Shown in pieces: positions 47,187 to 47,632 of a stretch of DNA of 64,000 nt. The stretch comes from Escherichia coli (lineage in GTDB: Bacteria; Pseudomonadota; Gammaproteobacteria; Enterobacterales; Enterobacteriaceae): the NCBI RefSeq assembly GCF_011045215.1, contig NZ_CP049201.1. One strand, 5' to 3'. The stretch's first letter is position 1. Every line of letters starts with the position of its first letter. The position numbers were made by a program, and so were the translations under genes. Below the pieces are notes generated by a model. The model saw nothing but the letters and a program-made list of their open reading frames with translations, did no database searches and was not told the origin of the DNA.

Positions 47187-47271
47187 GGTGGGGTTCCCGA
47201 GCGGCCAAAGGGAGCAGACTGTAAATCTGCCGTCATCGACTTCGAAGGTTCGAATCCTTCCCCCACCACCA
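47187..47271 (+). tRNA. tyrT: tRNA-Tyr (anticodon GUA)
   Basis: 85-nt GGTGGGGTTCCCGAGCGGCCAAAGGGAGCAGACTGTAAATCTGCC...GGTTCGAATCCTTCCCCCACCACCA with long variable arm and encoded CCA. Confidence 0.95.
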
Positions 47272-47430
47272 TCACTTTCAAAAGTACCTGAACTCTCAAG
47301 CGAATCCGTAAATAAATATTCTGCCCAAGCGGGGAAGGACGAGAAGCTTCGACCAAGGTTCGACTCGAGCGCCAGCGAGAGAGCGTTGCCGCAGGCAACG
47401 ACCCGAAGGGCGAAGCGCGCAGCGCTGAGT

Positions 47431-47449
47431 AATCCTTCCTCCACCACCA
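47431..47449 (+). repeat. direct repeat of the tRNA-Tyr 3' end (tyrT downstream repeat unit)
   Basis: AATCCTTCCTCCACCACCA matches the tRNA 3' terminus with one mismatch; an AAGGTTCGAcTC partial copy lies at about 47357. Confidence 0.6.
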
Positions 47450-47632
47450 TTTCTTCCTGAAATACTCAAAACCTGTTACTCCGAGCTAATTTTGCCCGAT
47501 GGCACCGCGTTTACCGGACCTACAATATCCTCCCCTGTAGGTCGGATAAGCGAAGCGCATCCGACAACTCACCCCGCACCGTGCCCATAAAAAAACCCCG
47601 CCGAAGCAGGGTCTATGTGAACTAAAATTCGC

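Follow-up and report, generated by a model that had tools for sequence, protein, structure and literature searches.

Does a tyrT locus of Escherichia coli that shows one tRNA-Tyr gene, followed by repeats of that gene's 3′ end, represent an ancestral arrangement, the remains of a lost gene, or an ordinary variant of a known operon? The question is raised by a stretch of 64,000 nucleotides of E. coli DNA (hereafter the window), for which an earlier note, drawn from the letters of the DNA, proposed that one gene copy may have been lost by recombination between repeats. Textbooks of E. coli genetics cover the tyrT locus, the 178-bp repeats that carry a copy of the tRNA tail, the RtT RNA, and the instability of the tandem tRNA genes. 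The window locus is this classical tyrT tRNA operon with one tRNA gene in place of the tandem pair, and it is very probably a derived single-copy allele from which 119 bp were lost by homology between two identical tRNA genes.

The tyrT Operon of the Window

The lone tRNA that ARAGORN finds in the 64-kb window is an 85-nt tRNA-Tyr with anticodon GTA and an encoded CCA (47187–47271, plus strand). The Rfam tRNA model agrees (47187–47268, 53.4 bits), so that the gene, a cloverleaf with a GUA anticodon and a CCA end, is indeed the sole intact tRNA-Tyr of the window, as had been noticed earlier. It is identical to both K-12 genes at 85/85 positions and has at least 99% identity to 5,419 E. coli records.

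The gene lies between purU (46185–47027, plus strand; formyltetrahydrofolate deformylase, 280 aa) upstream and narI (47633–48310, minus strand; nitrate reductase gamma subunit, 225 aa) downstream, both being open reading frames named after the annotation of matching E. coli genomes. The purU-to-narI synteny is that of K-12, and the whole of 22350–64000 is collinear with K-12 positions 1,314,660 to 1,270,037, save for K-12's own IS copies; relative to K-12, no IS elements were found in this part of the window.

The intergenic sequence between purU and the tRNA (47028–47186) is identical to the promoter and leader region upstream of tyrT in K-12 at 159/159 positions. Within it, at 47109–47136 (plus strand), a promoter scan gives a 10/12 match composed of TTTACA, 16 nt, and TATGAT, with TG before the −10 element and a GC-rich discriminator after it. 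From established knowledge of K-12, we take this to be the tyrT promoter. On the other side of the operon, towards narI, an inverted repeat with 17-nt arms that are 82% complementary (47508–47552) is presumably REP-like; strain 23CRST011 has an extra 46-bp copy of it inserted at window position 47535. A terminator-like hairpin follows narI (47593–47614, minus strand), with a 9-pair stem and then a T run.

The Downstream Repeats Belong to an RtT Unit

Two partial copies of the tRNA 3′ portion had been noticed downstream of the gene, and both can be placed. A repeat finder gives the T-arm-like 12-mer AAGGTTCGACTC at 47355–47366 (plus strand), which matches AAGGTTCGAATC at 47245–47256 in 11/12 positions. 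The other is a 19-nt copy of the tRNA 3′ end, AATCCTTCCTCCACCACCA, at 47431–47449 (plus strand), which matches 47253–47271 in 18/19 positions, the difference being a C to T change at 47440. The two 19-nt tails are 178 bp apart, start to start (47253 and 47431). With up to two mismatches, the 19-mer is expected 0.00 times per 64 kb (0/100 shuffles). For the 12-mer with up to one mismatch, the expectation is 0.31 matches per 64 kb, and 4/100 shuffles reach two matches; taken alone, its match is weakly significant against chance. It is nevertheless a real feature of the RtT element, because it lies inside the conserved “ccaAGGUuCGAgucgAGCG” stretch of the Rfam RtT consensus.

The tail spacing and the alignment with the K-12 units delimit a tyrT repeat unit of 178 bp (47272–47449, plus strand) that begins with the first nucleotide past the tRNA and closes with the 19-nt tail copy. 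Against the three K-12 units, 170/179, 168/178, and 167/178 positions match. The 3′ 132 nt of the unit (47318–47449, plus strand) are a full-length match to the Rfam family of RtT RNA, RF00391, covering model positions 1–130 of 130 with 129.2 bits against a gathering score of 45, and an “RtT sRNA” is annotated at the equivalent place in RefSeq genomes. The predicted RNA begins 47 nt past the end of the tRNA and finishes in the 18/19 tail copy, which places it in the 3′ trailer of the tyrT operon.

In the Rfam alignment the tail copy is the 3′ strand of the RtT terminal helix, with its partner GGGGAAGGA at 47331–47339, plus the CCACCACCA end. The element predicted here is thus like the family in its full-length match, its place directly downstream of tRNA-Tyr, and its terminal helix with a tRNA-like tail. 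It differs in being present as a single copy and in two pairs of that helix: the T at 47440, which is private to the window and absent from four other aligned strains, turns the closing G-C into G-U, and one A-U pair is an A-C mismatch. A passage of PMC3318445 attributes the description of the RtT RNA to Bosl and Kersten 1991, and its function and mode of action have been called unknown (bioRxiv 10.1101/2024.07.17.603846).

The unit is followed by the truncated start of a further one, 16 nt long (47450–47465, plus strand), which was identified through a family of direct repeats in which 47431–47465 is 80% identical to 47253–47287. The junction after the last tail is common to the window, K-12, and other strains. 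These 16 nt presumably account for the “.14” in the classical name “3.14 repeats”. The 178-bp repeat, with its 19-nt tRNA tail, is said to have been described as present “3.14 times” by Egan and Landy (1978) and Rossi et al. (1981).

Could the partial copies be remnants of a deleted tyrV? This was ruled out by the full RtT match and by the two-copy strains, which carry the unit and its motifs after their second tRNA. Because the copies belong to a conserved 178-bp RtT unit that is present also in two-copy strains, they are not debris of a lost gene; for annotators, such tail copies are neither pseudo-tRNAs nor traces of deletion.

The same unit contains the counterpart of the tpr reading frame, which in K-12 stands for a “protamine-like protein”; it lies at 47339–47428 (plus strand) and was recognised by comparing its 29-codon translation with that of K-12. 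Here an ACG at 47339–47341 replaces the ATG start of K-12 tpr, and the remaining 28 codons and the stop are identical, so that the window lacks an intact 29-codon frame with an ATG start. The C at 47340 that makes this ACG is common to the window, the O145:H28 strain 95-3192, and strain C325. Because of this ACG start, and of the in-frame stops that interrupt the tpr frame in the second and third units of K-12, comparison of the sequences suggests that the region is conserved as RNA (RtT) and not as protein.

The Nearest Two-Copy Haplotype Is a Short-Spacer Pair

Aligned with the tyrTV-tpr / rttR operon of K-12 (b1229–b1231, b4425), the window shares the purU–narI site, the 159-nt promoter and leader, the 85-nt tRNA-Tyr, and the 178-bp unit with its 19-nt tail. 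In K-12, tyrT is separated from tyrV by a spacer of 209 nt, made up of a 175-nt unit that closes with the tail and a further 34 nt, and three 178-bp units come after tyrV. The window lacks the 209-nt spacer, has one tRNA gene in place of two in tandem, and has one full unit with a truncated start in place of three, and thus shares the length of the K-12 repeat and not its number of about 3.14. The comparison bears out the statement of the earlier note that K-12 carries tandem tyrT and tyrV at the corresponding site. As a direct comparator for a deletion, K-12 was set aside as the poorer fit, since its 209-nt spacer gives a difference of 294 bp and the window haplotype is of the 34-nt-spacer type.

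The best matches to the 801-bp locus of the window are strain C325 (99.8%), which is single-copy too, and then O145:H28 strains (99.7%, 920 bp). The latter type, exemplified by strain 95-3192, has a tRNA, 34 nt, a second tRNA, and one unit, and this two-copy arrangement reads tRNA, TCTCAAGCATTACC..., tRNA. In a multiple alignment over the intergenic region 47028–47632, the window differs from 95-3192 only by a 119-bp gap (85 + 34) and by SNPs at 47440 and 47492. Short-spacer alleles of this kind, found in O145:H28 and many other E. coli, thus share with the window the single unit and the downstream junction, and the window is a short-spacer pair minus one 119-bp repeat, i.e., one tRNA and the 34-nt spacer. 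From these alignments the parent allele likely had the 34-nt spacer and not the 209-nt spacer of K-12, a refinement of the K-12 comparison first proposed.

The resemblance to the O145/C325 haplotype is local. It spans only about 46833 to about 47779, beyond which the narI side resembles other lineages (23CRST011, O157), and purU has SNPs private to the window at 46719, 46736, and 46757, so that the flanks are mosaic. The 185-bp junction that joins leader, tRNA, and unit is 100% identical in C325, in ESDR8, and in the window. Over a conserved stretch of 25 kb of the window (35000–59999), the best identity, 99.4%, is common to many unrelated strains, and none of 5,426 complete E. coli genomes exceeds it; the lineage of the window is therefore absent from these genomes.

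The Tandem Pair Is the Ancestral State

Species-representative genomes were scanned for a pattern composed of a tail, 20–50 nt, and a tRNA start, which can detect pairs only. The scan finds a tandem pair in 70 Enterobacteriaceae species representatives, nearly all beside purU and/or narI, including E. albertii, Salmonella enterica arizonae, Citrobacter, Enterobacter, Klebsiella, Kluyvera, Kosakonia, and Leclercia. The spacers of these pairs are about 22–37 nt or about 202–214 nt long. In 10/12 outgroup loci searched with the Rfam model, the pair is succeeded by between one and three RtT units, among them the loci of E. albertii, Salmonella arizonae, Citrobacter, Enterobacter, Klebsiella, and Kosakonia. 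The outgroup units have a constant length of 175–178 bp and score 116–137 bits as full-length RtT in distant genera. By this comparison, the tandem pair with its RtT unit or units is ancestral for the family.

The single copy of the window is derived, because the pair is the majority state in E. coli and sits at the purU–narI site in the 70 species representatives. The earlier note had allowed that a single copy with these repeats might be the original state. The outgroups speak against this, and the loss of one tRNA copy is upheld both by them and by a nearest haplotype that is longer by exactly 119 bp.

Single-Copy Alleles Are Frequent and Recurrent in E. coli

The 85-nt tRNA matches 15,731 chromosomal places in 5,425 E. 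coli genomes (median 3 per genome, range 1–7), a net deficit of 544 relative to three tRNA-Tyr per genome. Single-copy loci were sought with a 185-nt junction query made of 50 nt of leader, the tRNA, and 50 nt of the unit, for which a coverage of at least 80% is possible only if a single tRNA joins leader to unit. By this coverage criterion the junction is present in 196 genomes, and the best 60 of the 196 matches, which were inspected, all have one tRNA-Tyr. A second junction query, drawn from a genome with a gene cluster directly beside the tRNA, reaches coverage of the same kind in 393 genomes; the best 25 of these were inspected and include known ST131 strains such as JJ1887 and an O25b:H4 strain. 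Together, 589 of 5,426 complete E. coli genomes (10.9%), as counted by coverage, have a single copy at the locus, which is consistent with the net deficit of 544 tRNA-Tyr copies.

Copy number differs between members of the same clone or background. In O157:H7, Z887 has two copies and F6294, among others, has one, the difference being 294 bp. A difference of 294 bp also separates BL21(DE3), with two copies, from the B-type AS19-RrmA-, with one; the PurU and NarI proteins of these two strains are identical. In the ST131-type background, 2016C04-116 has two copies and AVS0947 and the ST131-type genomes have one, with a difference of 118 bp. As judged from these genome comparisons, copy loss is recurrent and independent within clones.

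The ST131-type locus of AVS0947 also differs in content. There, a cluster of seven genes (13254–20135 of locus L084) takes the place of every RtT unit and occupies the interval from narI to tRNA-Tyr. Its products are a KAS III-like protein, an epimerase, an MBL hydrolase, an F390-synthetase-like protein, a PAP2 phosphatase, a sterol desaturase, and a fatty-acid desaturase; the annotation names no integrase in the cluster.

Expanded alleles occur as well. In MS1718 and Z1322HEC0009, three tRNA-Tyr genes stand in tandem at a period of 119 bp, and one of the two strains is without any RtT unit; Citrobacter sp. MGH106 has four tandem copies. Among E. coli, the tyrT array thus holds one to three tRNA-Tyr genes and zero to three RtT units, and such variation in the number of copies and units is what an unstable tandem array would be expected to show.

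How the Single-Copy Allele Arose

The preferred account starts from an operon with two identical 85-bp tRNA-Tyr genes in tandem. One tRNA gene and the 34-nt spacer, 119 bp in all, would have been deleted in this strain, in an ancestor, or in the donor of a tract of about 1 kb. The homology of the identical genes would have driven the deletion, presumably through unequal crossing-over or through slipped-strand misalignment at replication. The expected product is a clean single gene, preceded by what lay upstream of the first gene and followed by what lay downstream of the second. Because the two genes are identical, the breakpoint may lie anywhere within the 85 bp at 47187–47271. The three-copy alleles suggest products of the reciprocal type. 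The part of the earlier note that ascribed the loss to recombination between repeats therefore stands as regards repeat homology and falls as regards the repeats it listed, as the best homology is offered by the identical 85-bp tRNA genes and not by the partial repeats of 12 and 19 nt.

The strong promoter, identical to that of K-12, would drive a transcript with the tRNA-Tyr followed by one 178-bp unit that folds into the RtT RNA. One tRNA-Tyr in place of two is expected per operon transcript, from the gene order, so that output per transcript would be halved. The genome probably has two tRNA-Tyr genes in place of three, assuming that tyrU, which lies outside the window, is retained. The single copy may have some effect on dosage or fitness; its lasting presence in a large and successful clone (ST131-type) argues against a strong cost.

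A collapse of two tandem tRNA-Tyr genes into one during assembly would mimic such a deletion. The array, with its period of 119 bp and its perfect repeat of 85 bp, is of a kind that invites it, since in the closest haplotype no more than 34 nt separate two identical copies, which a de Bruijn assembler run with k-mers below 85 could merge. Reads of at least 150 nt, however, span the 85-bp repeat, and the junctions in the window are clean. About 11% of the E. coli genomes that are complete and finished have the same structure, including 393 of one clone and several laboratory and outbreak lineages. On account of this frequency the single-copy allele is a real biological state, and an artefact in the window is unlikely. 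More room is left for a single-copy allele that already existed and came in by homologous recombination, or that descends from a remote ancestor in common with strains such as C325 and ESDR8. The perfect identity of the 185-bp junction with both strains fits such a history, and so does the confinement of the O145/C325 haplotype to about 46833–47779, between a narI side matching 23CRST011 and O157 and a purU side with private SNPs. Yet the O145-like haplotype exists in two-copy form in many strains, so that an independent 119-bp deletion fits equally well, and deletions demonstrably recur within clones. We regard import or shared inheritance as possible but doubtful. Since the flanks are mosaic and C325 and ESDR8 share the allele, the loss may predate the strain or have been imported; this alters which lineage lost the copy and not the nature of the allele.

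Two further readings concern the repeats and the direction of change. Integrative elements usually betray themselves by direct repeats of a tRNA 3′ end, and the 7-gene cluster of ST131-type genomes abuts the tRNA, so that the 19-nt repeats might be taken for attachment-site scars of elements integrated into the tRNA gene. Between the tRNA and narI, however, the open reading frames of the window include neither an integrase nor a mobile gene, and the annotation of the ST131-type cluster names no integrase either. The constant length of the unit, its scores as full-length RtT in distant genera, and the tail's role as the 3′ strand of the conserved terminal helix are those of a structured RNA. 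Absence of mobile genes and conservation of this RNA unit led to the rejection of attachment-site scars, which are extremely improbable. Still harder to credit is that a single tRNA-Tyr with tail repeats is ancestral and that the K-12 tandem arose by later duplication. This polarity was ruled out by the outgroup scan, which, although confined to pairs, finds them at the orthologous purU–narI locus in 70 species representatives of many genera; in E. coli, about 89% of genomes have the pair or more, and single alleles are nested in clones whose other members have the pair.

Relation to Known Variation at tRNA Genes

Loss of one gene from a short-spacer pair places the window within an already known kind of variation: the single-copy tyrT allele is common, recurrent, and ordinary. 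Russell et al. (1970) reportedly found single- and double-gene forms of the tyrosine suppressor locus (su3/supF) that interconvert by unequal recombination. The locus is the same, and so is the kind of event, one tRNA-Tyr gene being lost or gained between tandem copies. Those forms, however, belonged to the laboratory, to K-12 and its transducing phages, whereas here the allele is in a natural isolate and has a frequency of about 11% of complete genomes. More generally, tRNA gene copy number is flexible through duplication and deletion, as in Pseudomonas fluorescens SBW25 (PMC10954465). There too tRNA dosage shifts through recombination between repeats, but the changes are large tandem duplications selected in the laboratory, in contrast to the change of one 119-bp unit in a tandem tRNA array seen here.

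The number of tRNA-Tyr genes therefore varies among E. coli, with one at this locus in about 11% of complete genomes, including the whole of the ST131-type group sampled, and three in a few. Such variation is relevant to models of codon usage and tRNA dosage and to strain engineering at tyrT/tyrV. Because a tandem with a 119-bp period is prone to misassembly, the tyrT locus is also a useful spot for assembly quality control.

One could imagine that the tyrT array is a selected, reversible dosage switch that tunes the output of tRNA-Tyr or RtT, and not a case of neutral repeat instability. We consider this very unlikely. If it were true, selection would have fixed the single copy in the ST131-type clone, and the tuning could be a response, for example, to defence systems and phages that act through tRNA-Tyr. 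Retron-Eco7, which involves phage tRNA-Tyr, is an example of defence acting through this tRNA (PMC11555353).

Other Features of the Window

The segment 1–22350 of the window is absent from K-12, where ompW is the neighbour, and is the early region of a lambdoid prophage, with an exonuclease, an integrase, a DUF968 protein, a methyltransferase, and replication genes. Its best E. coli matches have only 52–66% coverage and 88–94% identity. Within it, 1902–1972 (minus strand) scores as tRNA-like with the Rfam tRNA model (36.4 bits) but is absent from the ARAGORN calls; with mismatches and a deletion in its acceptor stem, it is probably a decayed phage tRNA. The prophage also has a full-length match to the sok antitoxin RNA (RF01794, 109 bits) at 7643–7817 (minus strand), which implies a module of the hok/sok type. 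At the other end of the window, 63579–63644 (minus strand) matches an antisense RNA of the rdlD type (RF01813, 91 bits), the counterpart of the ldr/rdl repeats of K-12.
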